This document shows, piece by piece, positions 9,649 to 38,751 of a DNA stretch of 64,000 bases (position 1 is the stretch's first letter; each line of letters opens with the position of its first letter). The translations under genes were made by a program, and so were the position numbers. The notes below the pieces were generated by a model that saw only the letters and a program-made list of their open reading frames with translations, was not told where the DNA came from and did not search any database. The stretch lies in the sequence record OZ035742.1. One strand, written 5' to 3'. The DNA comes from Felixounavirus AN17P8.

Positions 9649-10182
9649 TCAAGATAGTTTTGCAAACTCTCCGTGGAGTTTAATAGCAGCTTCACAGTAA
9701 GCTTTATGGGCTTCTTCTGGTGTGTCATGGTAACCTAAAAACATCTTCTTACCTTTATAACTTATCTGTGCGACCCACTTACCAGACTTCTTTTTAAGAC
9801 TTACACCCTTGTACCCAGATTTATTGGTGACTGGTTTACCTTTATTCCAAGCACTTTGAAAATCATCTGCTTCCCTTAAGTTTACAATCCTGTTGTCAAG
9901 CGAGTCTCCGTTGATATGGTCAATGATACCTTTTGGCATCTTGCCATACACGTAAAGCCATGCGAGTCTGTGTGCTTTATGTGCTTTCTTGTCAAAATAG
10001 ATACTAATCTGTTTATGACCACTTGAATCAGTCTGGATATTACCTGCCACCTTTCCTGCATAATTACTGTTAAAAACACTAACAGCTCTTGATTTACCTT
10101 CTCTACGAAGCCAAGTAAAGACCCCTGTTTCGGGGTCATAGTGCAGCAGCTCCTTTAAACGTTTTTGTAAAATTAAATCCAT
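9649..10182 (-). CDS. HNH homing endonuclease with AP2-like DNA-binding domain
   Basis: HINGDSLDNRIVNLREA (HNH) plus GYKGVSLKKKSGKWVAQISYKGKKMFLGYHDTPEEAHKAY (AP2-like); paralog of 32334-32825. Confidence 0.7.
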   Translation of the reverse strand: MDLILQKRLKELLHYDPETGVFTWLRREGKSRAVSVFNSNYAGKVAGNIQTDSSGHKQISIYFDKKAHKAHRLAWLYVYGKMPKGIIDHINGDSLDNRIVNLREADDFQSAWNKGKPVTNKSGYKGVSLKKKSGKWVAQISYKGKKMFLGYHDTPEEAHKAYCEAAIKLHGEFAKLS

Positions 10183-10185
10183 TAA

Positions 10186-12915
10186 TCAATGTACCTCATA
10201 CCAGCTCTTACCAACCTTTGCTGTACCAGTTACAAGTGTTTCTTTCCTCAAACCTAAGTTTTTTGAAGCTTGTCCATACATCCAGTCAGCAATTGCTTTC
10301 ATATCATGTGTCATACCCTCTGGACATTCCCAACTATTTTCATCGTGATATGCCAGAAGTAACCTTGCTCCGATAGCTGGTTTTCGAGCATTCAGTTTTG
10401 TCAGGCCATCTTCACAGGCTTTTCTTGCTGCTAGGTTGATGGCCTCATTCTGAATCTGTGCTTCCGAACTCATCAGGAGGTAGTTCAGTAGTTTATGTGG
10501 AGATTTGCACCATATCCATGCTCCAGCGACCCTGATATAACCACCTTTAGCAATTGAAGAATTCTTCCCAAAAACCTCTTCCAGAGCCTTTTTAGACGCC
10601 TTAAAATCGGCTTCTAAGCTATCAAGTAACTTCTTAATCTTTGGCAGACGCATATAGTAAGTTTGTTTAGTCAATGCACCTTCTTCCGTAGATGATGCCT
10701 TGATAGTTTTTGCAAACTTCTCGTCTCCGGCTCCAAATAACAGGGCGTAGATGCCATTTTTGCTCTTCTTACGGCCTTTTGTAATCTCGTGAAGAAGTTC
10801 CTCATCCTGTGTCTCCCTACAACGAACAATATCTTCTTCCTTGTTCAGACCAAAGTAAATACTGTTCAGTGTATGCGCATCAGTCCCTGTGTAGACTTCA
10901 TAGAGGTCGTTCTCAGCATCATAACGAAGATACTTGTCAGTTTCTGGATTAAGATACTTATCGAGATGCTTGCAATAGTATCTGCCATCCTCTTGCTTAG
11001 TGAACTCTACTGACTCTTTACCCTCAGTTACTGCTTTAGTGAAGTCTTCATCACCCATAAAGTTACAAAGGAGAACTAGCTGGGCTGAGTTCATATCAAC
11101 GGAGACTACGTTGGTTCCTTCCTCGCAAATCCACACCTCCCTCATAGGCGCTCCATAGACAGCAGCACCAGATGGTACGTTTACAATACCATATTGTGTC
11201 ATACGTCCAGTTGAAGTACCAAACACCATTGCACCAGCACTAAGGCGACCATCAGGACGAATCTGGTTCAACCAACCTTTTTCATCATCTTTTGAGTTCT
11301 CAATAGTTCTGCGTCGGTGCATTAAAGTATAGTACTTAGCAATCTTCTGTCCAAGCTCACCTTCAATCGTATCATAAGATGATTCAGTAAGTTTTGGTGA
11401 AGTACGGATTAAGCAAGGCTCAAGCAAATCTGTGTATTTCTTCACAGACCAGTTATGCTCAATGTACTGTACACCTTCATGTTCAACATAACTCAAACCA
11501 CATCGTTCCACCATTTCCTGCCACTTAGGATGTTTTGTAATCATCTTTTTATTGTCTTTGAAACGACAAACTTTGACAGGGCGACCGTCTGAGTCTTTCT
11601 TGTAGTTCCAGTCATCTGGAATCCAACCAACTGATTTCAAGTAGTCTTTAACAACTGCTACCTGAGTCATACGAGAAACTTCGAACTCAATTGGTGTATA
11701 TGGTGCATCAATCAAACCTGTGTAGCGACTTGACTCAAGTTCAAAGTGGTTAACAACGTGACTGTTATAGTACTTCACAGTTTTGACTGTTTTTACTGGC
11801 TTCCAGTCTTTGCATTTCTTACCAATCTTTGCGTTCAACTCATTGCAAATTGCACGAGCATCCTTCATTGCTACAAAACCTTCCTTGTACTCTTCACCAG
11901 TTACAGTGTTGGTTGGTGTATAGCAATTTCTCTTTTCAATGTTAAAAATCTTTGTAGTTGGCTTACCAAATGGTTTGATTTCGTATGTCTGCATCTCGCC
12001 ATTACGTACCTGCTGACGATACTTTGTCTTAGGGTACTTGGTAATTCTTTTCAGTCCATCTGCATGACCAAATGTTTCAACATACTCATTCCAAGCTTTT
12101 GCAAACTCTTCTCCAGTGACTTTACCTTTGGTCTTAATAGTTGGAGGCAGATGTGGTTCAACCTCTGAAGCAAGCTCATTAGTCAACTTGTCAAGTTCCT
12201 TTACATGGAACTCCATAAGCCCCTTATCAGCTTTCCAACCATTGATAGCTTGTTGACTCATCCAGAAAGATGTTTCTTTAGCTCGCATGTAGGTTTCATA
12301 AGTGTCTATGCCACACTTCTTAAGCTTGAGATACTCATTATCAAGTGCCCGTTTAGTTTTGGCGTTAATACGGATATCTTCTACAACACGAGTGAAGATT
12401 TCTGCATTCCACACACCCCAATGCTCAATCTCTGGCTTACGAACACCAACACGAGCACCCCAAGCAGCCAAGCCATGAGCACCTTTATAACCCTTTGGAG
12501 TTGGTCTATCCATCCACTGAACACGAGACTGGATAAGAGAGTCCTGAAAGAAATTACTCCACGGTTTACACTTTGGATTATCAAAGTTCCATAAATCAGG
12601 TGCAATGTGATTGAAAACCCACCAGTCATAACCGAGACCATTATGGATGCAAAGACGTTTTGCCTTTAACGCAAATTCAACACCTTCACGTAAACCACCC
12701 TTGATGTACTTAGTGTACTTGTGACCGAGGATAGGCTCATCTGTAAAGACCCATACAGGTGGCTCTTCATCGTCAGATTTATAGTCTGCGAAAGCCATTA
12801 CGTGAACTTTAGTGAACTCAAGGAGTAAACCATCAGTTTCTGTATCACCAACCAAATGTAAGTTTTTAAAATCTACGTTTTCCATTTTTACTCCCTCTAA
12901 AATCATTAACCCCAT
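10186..12915 (-). CDS. DNA polymerase, family A, with 3'-5' exonuclease domain
   Basis: Exo motif DTETDGL; pol motif B RKKSKNGIYALLFGAG; motif C YHDE. Confidence 0.9.
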   Translation of the reverse strand: MGLMILEGVKMENVDFKNLHLVGDTETDGLLLEFTKVHVMAFADYKSDDEEPPVWVFTDEPILGHKYTKYIKGGLREGVEFALKAKRLCIHNGLGYDWWVFNHIAPDLWNFDNPKCKPWSNFFQDSLIQSRVQWMDRPTPKGYKGAHGLAAWGARVGVRKPEIEHWGVWNAEIFTRVVEDIRINAKTKRALDNEYLKLKKCGIDTYETYMRAKETSFWMSQQAINGWKADKGLMEFHVKELDKLTNELASEVEPHLPPTIKTKGKVTGEEFAKAWNEYVETFGHADGLKRITKYPKTKYRQQVRNGEMQTYEIKPFGKPTTKIFNIEKRNCYTPTNTVTGEEYKEGFVAMKDARAICNELNAKIGKKCKDWKPVKTVKTVKYYNSHVVNHFELESSRYTGLIDAPYTPIEFEVSRMTQVAVVKDYLKSVGWIPDDWNYKKDSDGRPVKVCRFKDNKKMITKHPKWQEMVERCGLSYVEHEGVQYIEHNWSVKKYTDLLEPCLIRTSPKLTESSYDTIEGELGQKIAKYYTLMHRRRTIENSKDDEKGWLNQIRPDGRLSAGAMVFGTSTGRMTQYGIVNVPSGAAVYGAPMREVWICEEGTNVVSVDMNSAQLVLLCNFMGDEDFTKAVTEGKESVEFTKQEDGRYYCKHLDKYLNPETDKYLRYDAENDLYEVYTGTDAHTLNSIYFGLNKEEDIVRCRETQDEELLHEITKGRKKSKNGIYALLFGAGDEKFAKTIKASSTEEGALTKQTYYMRLPKIKKLLDSLEADFKASKKALEEVFGKNSSIAKGGYIRVAGAWIWCKSPHKLLNYLLMSSEAQIQNEAINLAARKACEDGLTKLNARKPAIGARLLLAYHDENSWECPEGMTHDMKAIADWMYGQASKNLGLRKETLVTGTAKVGKSWYEVH

Positions 12916-30593: not shown

Positions 30594-30606
30594 ACAGATA
30601 CTATAA

Positions 30607-30635
30607 GGGAACTGTAAAGGTTCCCTTTTTATTTT
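30607..30635 (+). terminator. rho-independent terminator
   Basis: GGGAAC-tgtaaag-GTTCCC-TTTTTATTTTT. Confidence 0.6.
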
Positions 30636-30645
30636 TGGAGATAAA

Positions 30646-31161
30646 ATGTATCTGTCAAACCTGAAACGTTCGGCTGCAATGTCAGTTCTAAGACTCAGCT
30701 TTGAGGAACGTCAAGAGTTCATTGACTCCCACCAATACGACCCTTCTAACTCGAATCACATGGTTCTTTGGAATCGTGATAACTTCCGTGAAAGAGCACT
30801 TGTCCGTTATTACCCACACTACACAATAGATAACCTGTATGAATGGTGTGTTGTGAAGAACACTATTGCAACACTGAACAATCTTTGCAGGTATACAGGT
30901 AAGCAAGCATTTACATTAGGCCACCACAAACCTGTTACAAAGGGTGGTGAGCATCACTGCGCAAACTGGTTTATCCAGACTAAACTTGATAACCAGAAGC
31001 AAGGGGATAACCTTCTAAGCACACCTAAGATGACCTATGAAGAGCAAGAGAAATATGTCAAAAATAATATGCCAGATGTGCTTGACAACAACTATACAGA
31101 TTTGGCAATATCTCTCCTGTTGAAGTTCGAGACAGTTTATAGGGCAACTTACAATGGCTAA
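30646..31161 (+). CDS. HNH endonuclease
   Basis: LGHHKPVTKGGEHHCANWFIQTKLDNQKQGD resembles HNH catalytic core. Confidence 0.5.
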   Translation: MYLSNLKRSAAMSVLRLSFEERQEFIDSHQYDPSNSNHMVLWNRDNFRERALVRYYPHYTIDNLYEWCVVKNTIATLNNLCRYTGKQAFTLGHHKPVTKGGEHHCANWFIQTKLDNQKQGDNLLSTPKMTYEEQEKYVKNNMPDVLDNNYTDLAISLLLKFETVYRATYNG

Positions 31162-31432
31162 AGAGAAGTGGGAGATTTTACCATTAGTCAGTGAAGGCGG
31201 TAATGGTTGTGAAATGTACATGATACGTGGTCATGTTCCAGAACCAATTGCACTTGAGATGGTAAACAACTTTACAGATGGCTCTTACAAAGACTTAGGG
31301 GAGCCAACTATAAAGCAGCAATGGGTAAAGCCTGTACCAGACAGCACAGGTAACTGTAGTGTACTTTATCACGTTGTAGACCCTGTAAAATGCAAATCTG
31401 CAATGGCAGTAACAAATGTAACTTTTGATTGA
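31154..31432 (+). CDS. hypothetical protein
   Basis: 92 aa, coupled to neighbours. Confidence 0.35.
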   Translation: MAKEKWEILPLVSEGGNGCEMYMIRGHVPEPIALEMVNNFTDGSYKDLGEPTIKQQWVKPVPDSTGNCSVLYHVVDPVKCKSAMAVTNVTFD

Positions 31433-31443
31433 GAGAGAAAACT

Positions 31444-32325
31444 ATGAAAACATCTATCCGTGTTACAGTTCATTCACCAACTAAAGGGACTCATGAAGAA
31501 GAGTTTAACATCGTCCAATTTCCTTCTGGTGAGATTGGTGGACATTTTTCACCAGAGTTTGTTGACTTTACTGCTTATGCTGCATCATCCATCAACAACG
31601 TGATTATGATTGTAAAGGGTTATGACAAAGACACATTATTTGCTGTGGCACTTGCTAAAGAGGCAATTGATGATTTAGTACCTCATAAGTTTGCTATGAA
31701 GACTGCTATCTTTTACTATTTGCCAAATGCACGTTACGACCGTCACATGTTTAAAGGTGATGCAGCAGCTTTGAAAGTGTTTGCACAACAGGTTAATGCA
31801 ATGGGTTTTGATGCAGTCTGTGCAGTTGACCCTCACAGTTGCGTTCCAGATAACCTGTTTAACTGCTTCCAGAGTATTCCTCAAAAGGAGATTGCAGTTC
31901 ACTATGCAAATGACCCTCTGATTGATTACTTAGTAGCCCCAGATGCAGGTGCAGCTAAGAAGATTGCAGAGACTGCTAAAGAGGTGGATAAACCATATAT
32001 CACAATGTCTAAAGTGCGTAACCTTAAGACTGGTGAGATTACGGGTATGCGAATCCTTGATGATGTTGATTTGACAGATAAAACCGTCATGATTCTGGAT
32101 GATATCTGTGATGGTGGTCGAACCTTCGTAGAAGCAGCAAAACATCTTCGTGAAGCAGGTGCAAAACGTGTGGAACTTTATGTAACACATGGTATCTTCT
32201 CTAAAGATGTTGAAAACCTTCTTGACAATGGTATTGACCATATCTACACTACAAACTCTTTAGGGGAAGCTAAAGACCGTGGATTAGCACATTATGCCCA
32301 AGTTACTGTAGCAAACCTTGATTAG
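31444..32325 (+). CDS. ribose-phosphate pyrophosphokinase (Prs)-like enzyme; candidate ADPR-PP synthetase (Adps-like)
   Basis: Prs-family motifs VDPHS, LVAPDAGAAKKIAE, PRPP-binding loop ILDDICDGGRTFVEAAKHLREAGAKRV; start at ATG 31444 with RBS gagagag. Confidence 0.75.
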   Translation: MKTSIRVTVHSPTKGTHEEEFNIVQFPSGEIGGHFSPEFVDFTAYAASSINNVIMIVKGYDKDTLFAVALAKEAIDDLVPHKFAMKTAIFYYLPNARYDRHMFKGDAAALKVFAQQVNAMGFDAVCAVDPHSCVPDNLFNCFQSIPQKEIAVHYANDPLIDYLVAPDAGAAKKIAETAKEVDKPYITMSKVRNLKTGEITGMRILDDVDLTDKTVMILDDICDGGRTFVEAAKHLREAGAKRVELYVTHGIFSKDVENLLDNGIDHIYTTNSLGEAKDRGLAHYAQVTVANLD

Positions 32326-32333
32326 GTAATAGT

Positions 32334-32825
32334 GTGAATAAGGGTTATTTTGAAAAATACCTAATATATGAACCAGATACAGGTTTATTAATTTGGAGAG
32401 TAACCCTTTGCAGTACCGCTATTGCTGGTAATGTGGCTGGCACAAGGTCTAAGAAGGGTTATATCCAAGTCCAGATAAATAAGAAGAGGTACTATGCACA
32501 TAATATTGCATGGATTATGTCTGGAGGTGAGATACCAAGTGGATATGAGGTAGACCACATAGACCTTGATAAAGCTAATAATAAGTTGGAGAATTTAAGA
32601 CTTAGCACAAAGTCACAAAATCAGAGAAATAGGGGTATACACAAGAATAATAAAACTGGTGTGAAGGGTGTAAGTTTTTGTAAACAAACAGGTCTTTACA
32701 AAGCAAGAGTCATGCTTTACTATAAAGAATACTTTTGTGGAAGATTTAAAACGGTAGAAGAAGCAAAAGAAGCTGTAATTAAAAAGCGAATAGAACTTCA
32801 TGGTGAGTTTGCAAGACATAACTAA
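32334..32825 (+). CDS. HNH homing endonuclease with AP2-like domain
   Basis: GTG start; HIDLDKANNKLENLRL (HNH) plus GVKGVSFCKQTGLYKARV (AP2-like); sits between the two NAD+ salvage genes. Confidence 0.7.
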   Translation: MNKGYFEKYLIYEPDTGLLIWRVTLCSTAIAGNVAGTRSKKGYIQVQINKKRYYAHNIAWIMSGGEIPSGYEVDHIDLDKANNKLENLRLSTKSQNQRNRGIHKNNKTGVKGVSFCKQTGLYKARVMLYYKEYFCGRFKTVEEAKEAVIKKRIELHGEFARHN

Positions 32826-32839
32826 GAGAGAGATAAAAT

Positions 32840-34621
32840 ATGAGTAAGTCACTTTACGCAGTACCAGCAGGTCTTAATGCAGATGCTTACAAGGCATCAC
32901 ATATATATCAGTATCCAGATGCTACGCAATATCTTATGTTGAACCTAACACCACGTAGCGACAAATGGTTTAACAGTCCTTTAGCAATTGATGGTGTAGT
33001 GGCTTTTGGTATTCAACGTTTTGTTAAAGATTACTTGATAGACCACTGGAACGCCACTTTCTTTGAACGTGATAAAAAAGAAGCAATTGACGAAATCTTA
33101 GAAGTTATGAATGGTGTTCTGGGTAAAGATGCTATCGGTCGAGAGCATTGGGAAGCACTTCACGACTTAGGCTATCTACCAGTTGAAGTGTACGCTGTAG
33201 AAGAAGGTACAGTTGTTCCTATGCGTGTCCCAATGATTGTCTTCCAGAACACTGTTTCAGGTTTCCATTGGGTAGCAGGTTATCTGGAAGACGCTTTCTC
33301 TGCTGAGATTTGGAAGGCTTGCACCATTGCAACTATTGCATTGCACTACAAACGTATCTGTAAGAAGTGGGCTGACCTCACTTGCGACAACGACTTGCAT
33401 TTACCTTATCAGTGCCATGACTTTGCTATGCGTGGTATGTCCGGCTTTACTGATGACGCATTCAACGCTGTAGGACACTTAACCAGCTTTAAAGGGACTG
33501 ATAGCTTCCCTGCTGTATACACGGCTAAACGTATCTATGGGCAGACCTATCCAATCTCTGATATTGGAAGCTCTGTACCAGCCACTGAACACTCTGTAAT
33601 GTGTGCAAACATTGCTTGGGAAGGTGGTAACGAGTTGGTTGAAGAAGAAAGACGATTTAAAGGTGAGTTGCAAACCTTCCGTCGTTTCTTAACAGAAACT
33701 TACCCAACTGGTATTGCAAGTATTGTTTCAGATACTTATAACTTCTGGAGAACTGTGTCAGAAATCTTACCAGCACTTCGTAAAGAAATTATGGAACGTG
33801 ACGGTAAGCTGGTAATTCGCCCTGACTCTGGAGACCCTGTACACATTGTCACAGGTTATAAAGCAATCCACTTAGAGTGTGCTAAGAAGGCTTATTATGA
33901 GCACCTAAGCAAGCTGGAAGCTAGTGACACAATGTTGAATGCTGTTCTGAACATGAAGCTTGAAAACATCAACTATGGTATTGCTGGATGGCTACTGTCA
34001 GAAGGCTACGAAATGGTTGTTGACAGAGAAGACTTTGAAGTTGCTGATACAGTGATGTTGAAAAATGCTTATATGGTCGGTTCTGCAAACGTTGTAACAC
34101 GTCCTGTAGCTGAAATTGATGGAGCTATTAAGACACTGTACAACATCTTTGGGGGAACTATTAACTCTAAAGGGTTTAAGGTACTGGATGAACATATCGG
34201 CCTTATCTATGGTGACTCTATCACGCTGGAACGTGCAAACGAAATCCTGAAGCGTCTGTATGAAATGGGTTTTGCAAGCTCTAACGTAGTGTTTGGTGTA
34301 GGCTCTTACACTTACCAGTACATGACTCGTGACACCTTTGCATTTGCTGTCAAAGCAACTCTTGCAAGCATTGGTGGTAAAGAGATTATGCTTGCAAAAG
34401 ACCCTAAAACAGATAGTGGTGTTAAGAAGTCTGCCTTTGGTGGTGTAGCACCTATGTGGGACGGTGATAAGCTGAAAGCTGTAGATGGATATGGATTCCA
34501 GAGTTTTGCAGATGTACTTGACCACCCAGCCTGTGCTTTACGTTTAGTCTTTAGTGACTCTGAGCAGTTCGGTTACACGACTCTTGGTGATATTCGAAAT
34601 AATATTGACAAGCAGCTTTAA
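32840..34621 (+). CDS. nicotinamide phosphoribosyltransferase (NAMPT)-like enzyme; candidate nicotinamide ADPR transferase
   Basis: 593-aa NAMPT-family protein: N-terminal YKASHIYQYP, VFGVGSYTYQYMTRDT region; terminator follows. Confidence 0.8.
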   Translation: MSKSLYAVPAGLNADAYKASHIYQYPDATQYLMLNLTPRSDKWFNSPLAIDGVVAFGIQRFVKDYLIDHWNATFFERDKKEAIDEILEVMNGVLGKDAIGREHWEALHDLGYLPVEVYAVEEGTVVPMRVPMIVFQNTVSGFHWVAGYLEDAFSAEIWKACTIATIALHYKRICKKWADLTCDNDLHLPYQCHDFAMRGMSGFTDDAFNAVGHLTSFKGTDSFPAVYTAKRIYGQTYPISDIGSSVPATEHSVMCANIAWEGGNELVEEERRFKGELQTFRRFLTETYPTGIASIVSDTYNFWRTVSEILPALRKEIMERDGKLVIRPDSGDPVHIVTGYKAIHLECAKKAYYEHLSKLEASDTMLNAVLNMKLENINYGIAGWLLSEGYEMVVDREDFEVADTVMLKNAYMVGSANVVTRPVAEIDGAIKTLYNIFGGTINSKGFKVLDEHIGLIYGDSITLERANEILKRLYEMGFASSNVVFGVGSYTYQYMTRDTFAFAVKATLASIGGKEIMLAKDPKTDSGVKKSAFGGVAPMWDGDKLKAVDGYGFQSFADVLDHPACALRLVFSDSEQFGYTTLGDIRNNIDKQL

Positions 34622-34636
34622 AAGTATATGATAAGA

Positions 34637-34658
34637 GGCTCCTACGGGAGCCTTTTTA
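34637..34658 (+). terminator. rho-independent terminator
   Basis: GGCTCC-tacg-GGAGCC-TTTTT after NAMPT-like gene. Confidence 0.6.
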
Positions 34659-35196: not shown

Positions 35197-37563
35197 ATGC
35201 GCATGGTAAACGACCACGCAGAAGTGATTAAGAGTTCAACTTCTTTGGAGACATCTCAAGCACAGATTACAATGACACCTGAAATGTTTAGCCTTCTGAG
35301 TTCTGGTGTATACACGTTTAAAGAGCGAGCAGTGATTCGTGAACTGTCATGTAACGCAGTAGATGCTCAGAAAGAAGCTGGAAAAGAAAACATCCCATTC
35401 CATGTGCATTTACCTACTCGATTTGAGCCTTACTTTGAAGTCCGTGACTTTGGAACTGGTTTAACCCACGACAAAGTAATGAGTTTGTATCTGAACTACG
35501 GGGCTTCTACGAAGAATGACTCTAATGATTACATTGGTGCAATGGGTATCGGCTCAAAATCCCCATTTGCAATTGCTCAGTCATTCACAGTATCTAGCTA
35601 TGTTGATGGTGTTGTTAATAAGTACTCTGTTTACCTTGAGAATGGTATCCCTCAAGTGACTAAGCTTACTACTAACCCAACAAATGAACCTAATGGCTTA
35701 GCTGTACGTGTGGCAGTTGCTGACCACCGTATTTCAAAGTTCTTTGAAGAGGCTGGTCACGTATATTCATACTTTGCTGTAAAACCAGAAAGTAACATTG
35801 TATATGATGACGTGTTAGCAGATATGAACGTCATTGCTCGTGAAGAAGGTGTTTATGACGCTATGATTCATAAGCAAAGCTGGCGTTCTAGTGGTAACAG
35901 GACAGAGTTTAATGTGGTGATGGGTAATATTGCCTATCCAGTGAACATGGAAGCATTACTTGGTGATGATTTCTTCAAAGTCTTGCCAGAGTTTTTCCGT
36001 AGGAGCGTAGACCTTGTAAACATCTACATGCCTATTGGTTCAGTTGCTATAGCAGCTTCTCGTGAAGCATTGCAGATGAATGATACGACAAAAAATGTTA
36101 TCATTGAGGCAACTAAAAAGATAACTGAAGCAATTACAAAGGATGTTATCAAGAAAGTTAATAGTCAACCTACACTCATGGATGCTGCACAGGCTTATGC
36201 TGAGTTACGTTTGAACTCACGAGAAATGTTTAATGCTGTGTGTCCAAAGCTAGAGTGGGGAGGTGTTAAGCTTGATTCTCTGGAAGAAGAATTGCTAAAC
36301 ATTCGTCGTGGGATTATCTACGCAGAAGACGGCTCAGTCATTTATGAACGTGACGGTAAAGGCAATATTAAGGTTGATAGGAACGGAAACAACATCCCTA
36401 AAGTAGATTATCTTTATAACCCAGTTGCTTATGTCAAGTTCAACTCTTTAGAGAGTAAGGTTCGTGCAACAGCACTTTCCTACACTCAAGAGGCAAGTAT
36501 GTTCAATATCTTTGGTGCAATGCGTAAGAGCCAAATTGAACAGTTTTTGTTCGTGATTAATGACCGCCGCAATAAAAACGGTACTGAGAAGACTGTAGGC
36601 CGCAATCAGATTCTGCGTGGTGCATGTCGAGACTATGCCAGTGAGTCAAGTCTGTTTCACAGATACAATGGTATTGTGTTTGTATTCTCGACTGAAAAAG
36701 AGTTAGATGATTTAATCAATCTACACAAACTTGATAAAAGCTTGTTAAAGATTGTGAAAATGTCTGATAAGGAACACCATTACCAGCGCAAAGAAGCTGT
36801 AAGAGGTGTTGTAAAACTCTGGAAAGCAGTTCCAGCAGAATCTGTAGCTTCATACACAGAGGTGTCAGAAGACTTAGACACAATTGAAGAGCCTCAGCTT
36901 TACATTAAGGCAGTAGGTGACACAGTTGATGGCAAATGCTTTTGCTCATCTCCAGAAGATGTAGCTAAGTCAGTTGCTAATGTTATAGGGAAGACAGTCT
37001 ATGTTTTCCGAAAAGCAAATTGGAAAAAGATACCAGAAGACTGGATTGAAGTAGATGAGAAGCTCTTGAACGACAGCTTAACTGATGTTCACTGGATTAA
37101 TCATAACAGGTATATGACACGCATCTACATGAATGGTGTTCTTGACCTTACAAGCAGTTGGATTATTGCCAGAAACTTTACATTCAATAACAGGAAGATT
37201 TCTCGTGGTTATTGCTACTCACGAGATACTAGCAAAACTATCTTCCTAGAAGGTAACGAAGAGGCTGTAGAGGCAATTTTCGGTAAAATCCAGTATGTTG
37301 CTGCACCGTTTGCATACACTTACACTATTAGTGTGTTGAAGACTTTGAAAGAATGTCTTGACAATGATACAAAGCTTTACAAGAAAATTAAGAAAGCTGG
37401 CGACCGCATGGTTATTAAGTTGGCAAACTACCTTTCAAAAAGAAAACAAGAAAACTTCTTGCTTTCCCATTTAGATTGGAATAAAGTGTCACCTATTGAA
37501 GTGAGTAAGTTTTTGGGCTTTAATGTGAAATGTGTTCCAGAAGGTACAACAGTTTACGATTAA
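35197..37563 (+). CDS. rIIA-like protein with N-terminal GHKL ATPase fold
   Basis: GHKL boxes ELSCNAVDA, VRDFGTGL, GAMGIGSKSPF; ~790 aa; followed by an rIIB-sized gene. Confidence 0.55.
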   Translation: MRMVNDHAEVIKSSTSLETSQAQITMTPEMFSLLSSGVYTFKERAVIRELSCNAVDAQKEAGKENIPFHVHLPTRFEPYFEVRDFGTGLTHDKVMSLYLNYGASTKNDSNDYIGAMGIGSKSPFAIAQSFTVSSYVDGVVNKYSVYLENGIPQVTKLTTNPTNEPNGLAVRVAVADHRISKFFEEAGHVYSYFAVKPESNIVYDDVLADMNVIAREEGVYDAMIHKQSWRSSGNRTEFNVVMGNIAYPVNMEALLGDDFFKVLPEFFRRSVDLVNIYMPIGSVAIAASREALQMNDTTKNVIIEATKKITEAITKDVIKKVNSQPTLMDAAQAYAELRLNSREMFNAVCPKLEWGGVKLDSLEEELLNIRRGIIYAEDGSVIYERDGKGNIKVDRNGNNIPKVDYLYNPVAYVKFNSLESKVRATALSYTQEASMFNIFGAMRKSQIEQFLFVINDRRNKNGTEKTVGRNQILRGACRDYASESSLFHRYNGIVFVFSTEKELDDLINLHKLDKSLLKIVKMSDKEHHYQRKEAVRGVVKLWKAVPAESVASYTEVSEDLDTIEEPQLYIKAVGDTVDGKCFCSSPEDVAKSVANVIGKTVYVFRKANWKKIPEDWIEVDEKLLNDSLTDVHWINHNRYMTRIYMNGVLDLTSSWIIARNFTFNNRKISRGYCYSRDTSKTIFLEGNEEAVEAIFGKIQYVAAPFAYTYTISVLKTLKECLDNDTKLYKKIKKAGDRMVIKLANYLSKRKQENFLLSHLDWNKVSPIEVSKFLGFNVKCVPEGTTVYD

Positions 37564-37567
37564 GTGC

Positions 37568-37597
37568 TTGACAAGGGGCTTCAAAGCCCCTTAGAAT
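37568..37597 (+). promoter_or_regulatory. sigma70-like promoter for rIIB-like gene, hairpin in spacer
   Basis: gcTTGACAagGGGCTTCAAAGCCCCtTAGAAT; spacer holds a perfect GGGGCTT/AAGCCCC stem. Confidence 0.5.
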
Positions 37598-37641
37598 AGC
37601 CTCACAAAATGAGTTATTAACTAACAAGAGAGAGTAATAAG

Positions 37642-38751
37642 ATGACTACTAAAACTAAAGCACAGATTGACGCAGAAATTTACAAACTGGTTAAAGAGGG
37701 TAAGCTGACTAAAACAGCTATTGCACAGAAATTTAACACCTCAACACGTTCAGTTGGTCGTGCTGTAGAGCGTCATGAAGCAACCTTAAAAGGTAAGAAA
37801 AAGGTAGCTTCTAAACCAGCTACGAAGACTTTGAAGCAAGTTGCTAAATCAGTTAAAAAGAAAGCTGGAAAACCAGTTGAAAATGTTGTTAAAGAGACTG
37901 TACAAAAGGCTCCGGTAAATAAACTACACGAAGCTATGCAGAATGGTAACCAGATTGAGTATATGATTACTGGCGATTCTATTATCATGACTTTTGGTGC
38001 AGATTCTGAAATCGTTGAATCTACCCATCCGAACTACAAAGAAATCGTAATGGCTGTTGTATCCGGTGAGTATAAGAAAGCTTTCGAACTGATGAACATT
38101 CGTAAGTCTATCGAAAACTTCACTCAGGGTGCTATCACCATCAAAGGTGACAAGTTATTCTATGGTGCTGTTGAGATGCGTTCTACTCTGGTTGACCGTA
38201 TTCTTCACATGATGAAGACTGGAGATAAGGGTTTTGAACGCCTTGTGATGTTCTTCGAAAAACTGATGGAAAACCCATCTAAAGATTCTGTAGAACAACT
38301 TTGGGGATTCGTATCTCACCTTGATGTTGAAATTGATGAAGAAGGCTACATCATTGGTTGGAAGAAAGTCTCTACTCGTGAAGGCAAGCTGGTTGACTCC
38401 CACACCTACAGAGTTCCTAATGATTTGGGTAACATTGTAGAAATGCCACGTTGGATGGTTGATAATAACCGTAACGTGACTTGCTCTCAAGGTCTTCACG
38501 TTGGTGCTTGGGATTACGTTCGTTGCTTCTCAGGCGACACAATCCTGAAGGTTCGTGTCCATCCACGAGACGTTGTATCCGTACCAACTGATTACAACGA
38601 TATGAAGATGCGCTCGTCTCGTTATGAAGTTGCAGCAATCGTTGATAATCAACGTAAAGTGCTGAAAGCATGGGATGGCAAGACTGAAGCTTTACATGTC
38701 ATCGTCGGTACTGCTGGAGAACTTATCTCCCAACGTAAACGTGAAATCTAA
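37642..38751 (+). CDS. rIIB-like protein
   Basis: Position after rIIA-like gene; N-terminal HTH-like LTKTAIAQKFNTSTRSVGRAV; own promoter. Confidence 0.45.
   Translation: MTTKTKAQIDAEIYKLVKEGKLTKTAIAQKFNTSTRSVGRAVERHEATLKGKKKVASKPATKTLKQVAKSVKKKAGKPVENVVKETVQKAPVNKLHEAMQNGNQIEYMITGDSIIMTFGADSEIVESTHPNYKEIVMAVVSGEYKKAFELMNIRKSIENFTQGAITIKGDKLFYGAVEMRSTLVDRILHMMKTGDKGFERLVMFFEKLMENPSKDSVEQLWGFVSHLDVEIDEEGYIIGWKKVSTREGKLVDSHTYRVPNDLGNIVEMPRWMVDNNRNVTCSQGLHVGAWDYVRCFSGDTILKVRVHPRDVVSVPTDYNDMKMRSSRYEVAAIVDNQRKVLKAWDGKTEALHVIVGTAGELISQRKREI

Follow-up and report, generated by a model that had tools for sequence, protein, structure and literature searches.

A gene of the ribose-phosphate pyrophosphokinase (PRPS) family and a gene of the NAMPT family lie on the same strand of Felixounavirus AN17P8, separated by a third gene, and the locus raises the question of what the pair makes and what the gene between them is doing there. 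The DNA analysed is a stretch of 64,000 nucleotides (nt) from sequence record OZ035742.1, hereafter the window. A preliminary description of this DNA had placed three same-strand genes at positions 31444-34621, coordinates that our analysis of the open reading frames (ORFs) confirmed exactly, and had pointed to a phage pathway, reported in 2024, that rebuilds NAD+ from ADP-ribose (ADPR) and nicotinamide. This was accurate: the pathway is NARP1, consisting of Adps and Namat and described by Osterman et al. (bioRxiv 10.1101/2024.02.11.579819). We consider it very probable that the window locus is the NARP1 counter-defence operon of a Felix O1-like phage in which an HNH homing gene is lodged between adps and namat.

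The model predicts that NAD+ would first be split into ADPR and nicotinamide by an NADase-type defence of the host, such as SIR2-HerA/Nezha, type I Thoeris, DSR1/2, SEFIR or a similar system. Adps would then move the β,γ-pyrophosphate of ATP onto ADPR's distal ribose, yielding ADPR-pyrophosphate (ADPR-PP) and AMP, and Namat would swap the pyrophosphate of ADPR-PP for nicotinamide, yielding NAD+ directly together with free pyrophosphate. The founding example of the pathway, genes 79-80 of the BASEL phage Bas63 (JohannRWettstein), likewise comes from a Felixounavirus. Bas63 lacking genes 79-80 was sensitised to SIR2-HerA, NAD+ was rescued only when the two genes were present, and ADPR-PP was found only in infected, defence-expressing cells and only with the two genes present; host pncC and nadR were not needed for the effect (10.1101/2024.02.11.579819). 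PhageMaP provided independent confirmation that g79 and g80 counter SIR2-HerA (10.1101/2024.10.10.617714). The original biochemistry was performed on SpbetaL1 homologues (10.1101/2024.02.11.579819), and structures of SpbetaL1 Namat (PMC12774641) and ICP1 Adps (PMC13586617) came later. A preference for ADPR-PP and direct NAD+ synthesis have been shown for SpbetaL1 Namat (PMC12774641) and in vivo for Bas63 (10.1101/2024.02.11.579819).

The window sequence is that of a Felixounavirus. Over the 4.2-kb region of the locus, identity to Salmonella phage Si3 is 97.4%. The region has matches in 258 phage records, which with few exceptions are Felix O1-like myoviruses of Salmonella, Escherichia, Shigella and Citrobacter, and its neighbours (NrdG upstream, rIIA/rIIB downstream) fit the Felix O1-like genome type. 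The gene order of Bas63 (MZ501086), gp77-gp78-adps-namat-...-rIIA, is also the order in the window. The published definition of a NARP1 locus places Namat no more than 10 genes from Adps; in the window a PRPS-family and a NAMPT-family gene have one ORF between them. Pfam, PHROGs and NCBIfam were concordant on the families of the locus genes. The adps ORF matched Pribosyltran (PF00156; 3.1e-11), Pribosyl_synth (PF14572; 2.8e-10) and PHROG 619, ribose-phosphate pyrophosphokinase (1.4e-97), and the namat ORF matched NAPRTase (3.2e-35), NAMPT_N (9.3e-6) and the nicotinamide phosphoribosyltransferase family of PHROGs (1.1e-201). The mechanical ORF list starts adps at a TTG at 31429; the ATG at 31444 agrees with the annotated start in relatives.

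The preliminary description had proposed that both proteins be compared with the published Adps and Namat families and with canonical Prs and NAMPT. In the case of Namat, which is identical to Bas63 gp80 at 580 of 593 residues (98%), sequence and structure searches both ranked the SpbetaL1 Namat entries 9w5w/9w5x of the PDB first, before Haemophilus NadV and mammalian NAMPT. With phmmer these entries scored 5e-129 vs 8e-52 and 2e-41 for NAMPT-type entries, the latter value being that of mammalian NAMPT. The AlphaFold2 model of Namat had a mean predicted local distance difference test score (pLDDT) of 92.7, its top Foldseek match was 9w5x with a target TM score of 0.95, and ranks 1-7 were all 9w5x/9w5w. 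Window F195, R198, D221, H251, R327 and D329 correspond to F189, R192, D215, the catalytic His, R306 and D308 of SpbetaL1 Namat (PMC12774641), and the catalytic-core residues were invariant among 52 homologues. Namat also contains both parts of the clamp that selects for ADPR-PP and that is absent from NAMPT (PMC12774641). One is the SCH signature, defined as GS-X-φ-X-φ-X-φ-TRD (PMC12774641). The other is the selectivity-clamp loop (SCL), for which the rule is Arg, Lys or Tyr at the third position plus a stacking residue (PMC12774641). The window SCL follows this rule, with K42 aligning with SpbetaL1 R40 and W43 as the predicted adenine-stacking residue. By orthology, the namat product would be a nicotinamide ADP-ribose transferase that converts ADPR-PP and nicotinamide to NAD+.

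Adps is identical to the syntenic Bas63 gp79 at 233 of 293 residues (80%) and 33% identical to ICP1 Adps, which has been characterised biochemically and structurally. Window R97, H131, D167 and K190 align with ICP1 R87, H121, D161 and K185, and window D219, D220, I221, C222, D223 and F228 align with ICP1 D212-D216 and F221. All of the residues found by mutagenesis to be needed in ICP1 Adps (H121, D161, K185, D212, D213) are kept in the window protein; the K185A substitution abolished ADPR-PP formation (PMC13586617). The clear PRPP-binding loop noted in the preliminary description is the PP-loop of this alignment, DDICDGGRT. In the comparison with canonical Prs, Adps fell far short of every NCBIfam Prs equivalog cut-off (best score 105 bits vs a cut-off of 296) and exceeded just that of the broad TIGR01251 subfamily (125 vs 113 bits), with a match that stops at model position 290 of 309. 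Similarly, the alignment of the 293-residue Adps to the 318-residue human PRPS1 ends at residue 288. The sequence is consistent with absence of the PRPS C-terminal α11-α12 region. By orthology, the adps product would be an ADP-ribose pyrophosphokinase that makes ADPR-PP from ADPR and ATP.

Two N-terminal alleles of Adps (31444-31900) occur in the genus, with 70% amino acid and 62-68% nt identity between them; the C-domain is 89-97% identical in amino acids. The window, Si3, wV8 and REP9 have one allele, and Bas63 and Felix O1 have the other, which resembles that of the Citrobacter phage Moogle. The window allele is the commoner, the experimentally tested Bas63 allele is the rarer, and the split is unlinked to the presence of the HNH gene.

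The best surviving alternative is classical salvage, in which the PRPS-like enzyme would make phosphoribosyl pyrophosphate (PRPP) from ribose-5-phosphate, the NAMPT-like enzyme would make nicotinamide mononucleotide (NMN), and host NadR/PncC routes would lead on to NAD+. This is how public records name the genes (ribose-phosphate pyrophosphokinase and nicotinamide phosphoribosyltransferase/NadV), and the TIGR01251 score is in keeping with it; moreover, SpbetaL1 Namat keeps about half of the PRPP-dependent NMN activity of human NAMPT in vitro (PMC12774641). However, the Bas63 genetics and metabolomics contradict this scheme, and the SpbetaL1 homologue yielded no product with the canonical PRPS substrate (10.1101/2024.02.11.579819). 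The Prs equivalog scores and the clamp in window Namat also speak against it, and the annotation of the Bas63 record, examined over genes 53-161, lists no NMN adenylyltransferase. We therefore regard classical salvage as very unlikely. The preliminary description had favoured NAD+ reconstitution over NadV-type salvage, and this reading is supported by the syntenic Bas63 orthologues and by the sequence and structural signatures of Namat.

Table. Coordinates of the genes, motifs and other features of the locus (window positions unless another record is named).
Feature	Position	Strand	Basis or remark
adps, PRPS-like ORF	31444..32325	+	293 aa from ATG
Adps Lys190 codon (= ICP1 Lys185, catalytic β-hairpin lysine)	32011..32013	+	alignment and translation
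Adps PP-loop DDICDGGRT (ICP1 D212-S220 DDICDGAAS)	32098..32124	+	alignment; PMC13586617
HNH endonuclease ORF, free-standing	32334..32825	+	163 aa, GTG start
Namat ribosome-binding region GAGAGAGATAAAAT	32826..32839	+	retained next to HNH gene; junctions of eight genomes compared
namat, NAMPT-like ORF	32840..34621	+	593 aa
Namat selectivity-clamp loop (SCL) PRSDKWF	32951..32971	+	identical to Bas63
Lineage-specific Namat insertion domain, residues 337-427	33848..34120	+	~90 residues, compact α/β
Namat selectivity-clamp SCH signature GSYTYQYMTRD	34301..34333	+	translation; kept in 52/52 aligned homologues
Intrinsic-terminator-like hairpin	34633..34656	+	10-bp stem and T-run, 12 nt past Namat stop; -17.4 kcal/mol, z -3.4
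Empty-site spacer	Bas63 L009 3429-3473; wV8 L005 2747-2791; Sf13 L008 2747-2790		corresponds to window 32326-32839

The gap between adps and namat is 514 nt and holds a single ORF on the same strand, which begins 8 nt past the Adps stop codon and ends 14 nt ahead of the Namat start codon. The preliminary description had called this an HNH-AP2 endonuclease that splits the pair. The two genes are indeed separated, but no coding sequence is interrupted, as the ORF occupies the intergenic spacer. The HNH half of the assignment stood, with a Pfam match to HNH_3 over model positions 1-46 of 46 (3.7e-19), whereas the AP2 half is weak, its match (5.4e-4) scoring 20.6 bits vs a gathering score of 33.3 and so remaining below threshold. 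In PHROGs the ORF matched PHROG 99, HNH endonuclease (1.7e-67), and 16 of 18 PHROG matches were to HNH or endonuclease families.

The HNH gene occupies this exact site in 61 of the roughly 253 related genomes (Felix O1, Si3 and Moogle among them), and its boundaries are the same in two genera. The site is empty in about 190 collinear genomes, such as those of Bas63, wV8, REP9 and Sf13. This pattern upheld the mobile-element footprint described earlier, and the insertion is a polymorphism that is common among Felix O1-like phages and has already been annotated. Although Moogle belongs to a different genus, its HNH gene and the window copy have 91.1% nt and 90% amino acid identity, vs 78.1% (Adps) and 77.1% (Namat) nt identity for the flanking genes. 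The GC content of the HNH gene is 34.8%, compared with 40-42% in the flanks. We take the element to be mobile because it is better conserved across genera than its flanks and has a lower GC content. A paralogue of the HNH_3 type, 36.6% identical, lies on the - strand at 9658-10146 (within the interval 9649-10182) and directly adjoins a 909-residue ORF at 10186-12915.

Sequence next to the insertion also tracks the HNH gene. The 5′ 150 nt of window Namat are 88.7% identical to those of Moogle, which has the HNH gene, vs 82.1% to those of its congener Sf13, which lacks it; the first 70-150 nt or so of Moogle Namat resemble the HNH-containing allele and not that of Sf13. Across the two genera, the Adps stop codon (32323-32325; TAG with the gene, TGA/TAA without), Namat codon 2 (AGT with the gene, ACT without) and a linked polymorphic block at 32893-32945 follow the presence of the HNH gene. 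These polymorphisms (32323-32325 and 32840-32990) look like a co-conversion tract or a cleavage-resistant allele. REP9 lacks the HNH gene, yet its flank is of the HNH-containing type, which suggests loss of the element or recombination.

Comparison of the junctions indicated what the insertion replaced. Empty sites have a spacer of 44-45 nt that consists of the stop codon, a GGGGCU-tetraloop-AGCCCC hairpin, A(U/C)UUU, GAGAGAGA and the Namat ATG. The 6-bp hairpin is conserved, with a stability of -11.5 to -14 kcal/mol, and is annotated as a terminator in one record. In filled sites the hairpin is precisely replaced by the HNH ORF and the GAGAGAGA region is kept, such that this element precedes Namat in genomes with and without the HNH gene. 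The population pattern suggests that, in co-infected cells, the endonuclease would cleave empty alleles close to the Adps/Namat junction, and that repair would copy the HNH gene in and carry along adjacent Namat 5′ sequence. The element very probably invaded the 45-nt spacer, removing the hairpin and sparing the Namat ribosome-binding site, and probably rides in the transcription unit of the operon without a role in its chemistry; homing may be ongoing.

Terminator-like hairpins at 30605-30627 and downstream of Namat (see the table) flank a block of five ORFs that extends from a homologue of Bas63 gp77 through Namat, and we found no convincing terminator inside this block, including between adps, the HNH gene and namat. 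The downstream hairpin is likely to be the end of the transcription unit. As the block is bracketed by terminator-like hairpins and has no convincing internal terminator, the HNH gene is probably co-transcribed with the operon.

In a second alternative, the middle ORF would be a third component of the pathway, like Adpp (NARP1-AP) or RyDEP, rather than a selfish element. Accessory genes do sit between or beside adps and namat in other phages (10.64898/2026.01.28.702374; 10.64898/2026.05.28.727677), and the middle ORF shares their strand, leaves little space to its neighbours and falls within the terminator-bounded unit. However, its domain matches are limited to HNH_3, the weak AP2 match and mostly HNH PHROGs, and neither a Macro nor a RyR domain was matched in this ORF or in four small neighbouring ORFs with Pfam and PHROGs. 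In addition, the ORF is absent from about three quarters of the collinear genomes, including that of Bas63, in which NARP1 is fully functional, and its cross-genus conservation and GC content are the behaviour of a mobile element. A pathway role for this ORF is thus highly improbable, and it is very probably a free-standing HNH homing endonuclease gene, a selfish insert with no part in the pathway. In the third alternative, the endonuclease insertion, which deleted a conserved hairpin between the cistrons and lengthened the gap by 0.5 kb, would have broken co-expression and left the pair decayed or inactive. This is extremely unlikely, given that neither ORF is truncated or lacks a catalytic residue, that the Namat ribosome-binding site is retained, that the 61 genomes with the HNH gene, which span two genera and include Felix O1, all keep the genes beside it intact, and that the only strong terminator-like site is after Namat and none lies between the three genes.

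Several points weigh against a NARP1 operon carrying a homing gene. The conserved Adps residues are mostly common to canonical PRPS and alone do not separate ADPR from ribose-5-phosphate as the acceptor. For this reason, the identity of Adps is argued mainly from orthology and from its linkage to a bona fide Namat. F18 and F92, the aromatic residues with which ICP1 Adps contacts adenine, are unmatched by position in the window protein, which has H17 and M102 there, F103 being adjacent and F22/F27 close by; at 26% identity, alignment of the N-terminal part is unreliable, and Bas63 Adps has the same residues as the window at these positions. Bas63 gp79, the protein that was tested, and window Adps have just 70% identity in their N-domains. 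The start codon of the HNH gene is GTG in the window vs ATG in Si3, Felix O1 and Moogle, the ORF being otherwise intact. Loss of the hairpin together with the 0.5-kb insert could shift the ratio of Adps to Namat expression. Finally, the enzyme activities and the anti-defence phenotype of this exact phage are predictions drawn from its relatives, from sequence and from models.

A loose thread of some interest is an orphan insertion domain in Namat, which directly follows the catalytic RPDSGDP strand. It is absent from SpbetaL1 Namat, ICP1 Namat and NAMPT, and it is confidently folded in the models (pLDDT 93-97 in context and 87.6 alone). Searches of Pfam, PDB and BFVD for relatives of the domain found none, and it goes unmentioned in the Namat structure paper (PMC12774641). 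The domain is confined to Namats of Ounavirinae-type phages, with homologues down to 46% identity, and is the most divergent part of the protein. We think it rather doubtful that it is a functional add-on to NARP1 and not neutral decoration. If functional, it could be a regulatory or substrate-gating lid, or a docking site for Adps or for ADPR-producing host NADases. It could also be a surface under arms-race selection by host inhibitors of NARP1, a pressure that might equally lie behind the two deeply diverged Adps N-domain alleles. Compared with SpbetaL1 and ICP1 Namat, the window protein has another, smaller lineage-specific insertion at residues ~257-275 (33608-33664), which is 11-14 residues longer in Mooglevirus-type homologues. 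We also observed Namat-motif homologues of 496 residues (GS[FY]TYQYNTRD, 46-48% identity) on contigs several megabases long from Klebsiella, Cronobacter, Kosakonia and Phytobacter (including P0069, P0072, P0087 and P0106); these are possibly chromosomal or prophage-borne bacterial copies of NARP1, a kind known from the literature.

Genes on either side of the operon have counterparts with reported anti-defence activity. The gene at 30646-31161, two genes upstream of adps, is the orthologue of Bas63 gp77 (92% identical), which was reported to counter retron Ec67 and was described as GIY-YIG (PhageMaP, 10.1101/2024.10.10.617714). The window product had no Pfam match and a weak PHROGs match to an HNH endonuclease (phrog_2214, 6.8e-6). 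Directly downstream, at 35197-38751, are homologues of rIIA and rIIB that correspond to Bas63 gp84/85, reported as QatABCD counters. Because the gp77 homologue, NARP1 and rIIA/rIIB sit together, the region from 30.6 to 38.8 kb appears to be an anti-defence neighbourhood. Bas63 has an additional hypothetical ORF of 345 nt past Namat, bas63_0081 (L009 5309-5653; between window positions 34621 and 34675), which is missing from the window, Si3, wV8 and REP9; Moogle holds another small ORF there. The 3′ end of the operon is thus another indel hot spot. Elsewhere in the window, 26 tRNA genes are clustered on the + strand at 58373-63585, as is typical of Felix O1-like phages.

The main finding was already known. 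NARP1 was discovered in this genus, and versions that contain the HNH gene, as in Felix O1, are annotated and lie within the published locus definition; the insertion domain is the only loose thread of some interest. Correct annotation nevertheless matters, as public records still describe a PRPP synthetase with NadV-type salvage. Since the genes are those of NARP1 in this genus, the phage would be expected to resist NAD+ depletion by SIR2-HerA, type I Thoeris, DSR1/2 and SEFIR-type systems, which is relevant to predicting the host range of therapeutic or diagnostic Felix O1-like phages. As the HNH gene shows, the operon can accommodate a 0.5-kb selfish insert and do without its intercistronic hairpin. 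Otherwise, current understanding is unchanged.

Among known systems, the closest is bas63_0079/0080 of Bas63 (MZ501086), which shares with the window its genus, flanking genes, gene order and strand. The Namat proteins of both phages have 593 residues, the insertion domain and the clamp residues, and the C-terminal catalytic domains of Adps are near-identical. In contrast, Bas63 has the other allele of the Adps N-domain, no HNH gene but the 45-nt hairpin spacer between the pair, and the added small ORF bas63_0081 after Namat. The three-gene arrangement itself is found in Felix O1 (ORF127-ORF128-nadV; NC_005282) and Si3 (NC_041922), in which the gene at the identical site already carries an HNH endonuclease annotation. 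Over the locus, Si3 is 97% identical to the window, whereas Felix O1 differs in its Bas63-type Adps N-terminal allele, and in both phages the HNH gene starts with ATG. SpbetaL1 Namat (PDB 9w5w/9w5x) and ICP1 Adps (UniProt F1D1Q1) share folds and catalytic residues with the window proteins, along with the Namat clamp motif and the Adps PP-loop and β-hairpin lysine. They are more distant in sequence: SpbetaL1 Namat is 38% identical to window Namat (Foldseek), and identity between the window and ICP1 proteins is 47% for Namat and 33% for Adps. In addition, the SpbetaL1 and ICP1 Namats are without the insertion domain of ~90 residues and without an insertion of ~15 residues at 258-272.

The known accessories of NARP1 operons are the Macro-domain ADPR-1′′-phosphatase Adpp (NARP1-AP) and the RyR-domain cyclic ADPR glycosidase RyDEP (10.64898/2026.01.28.702374; 10.64898/2026.05.28.727677). 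These operons resemble the window locus in having a third gene embedded with adps and namat. However, their third gene is a metabolic accessory that supplies ADPR, whereas that of the window encodes an HNH endonuclease unrelated to ADPR chemistry. In this respect, the middle gene resembles the free-standing HNH and GIY-YIG endonucleases of T4-like and Felix O1-like phages, which carry out intronless homing: like them, it lies between conserved genes, is polymorphic for presence and absence, has a lower GC content and paralogues elsewhere in the genome, and is accompanied by a pattern that resembles co-conversion of adjacent sequence.

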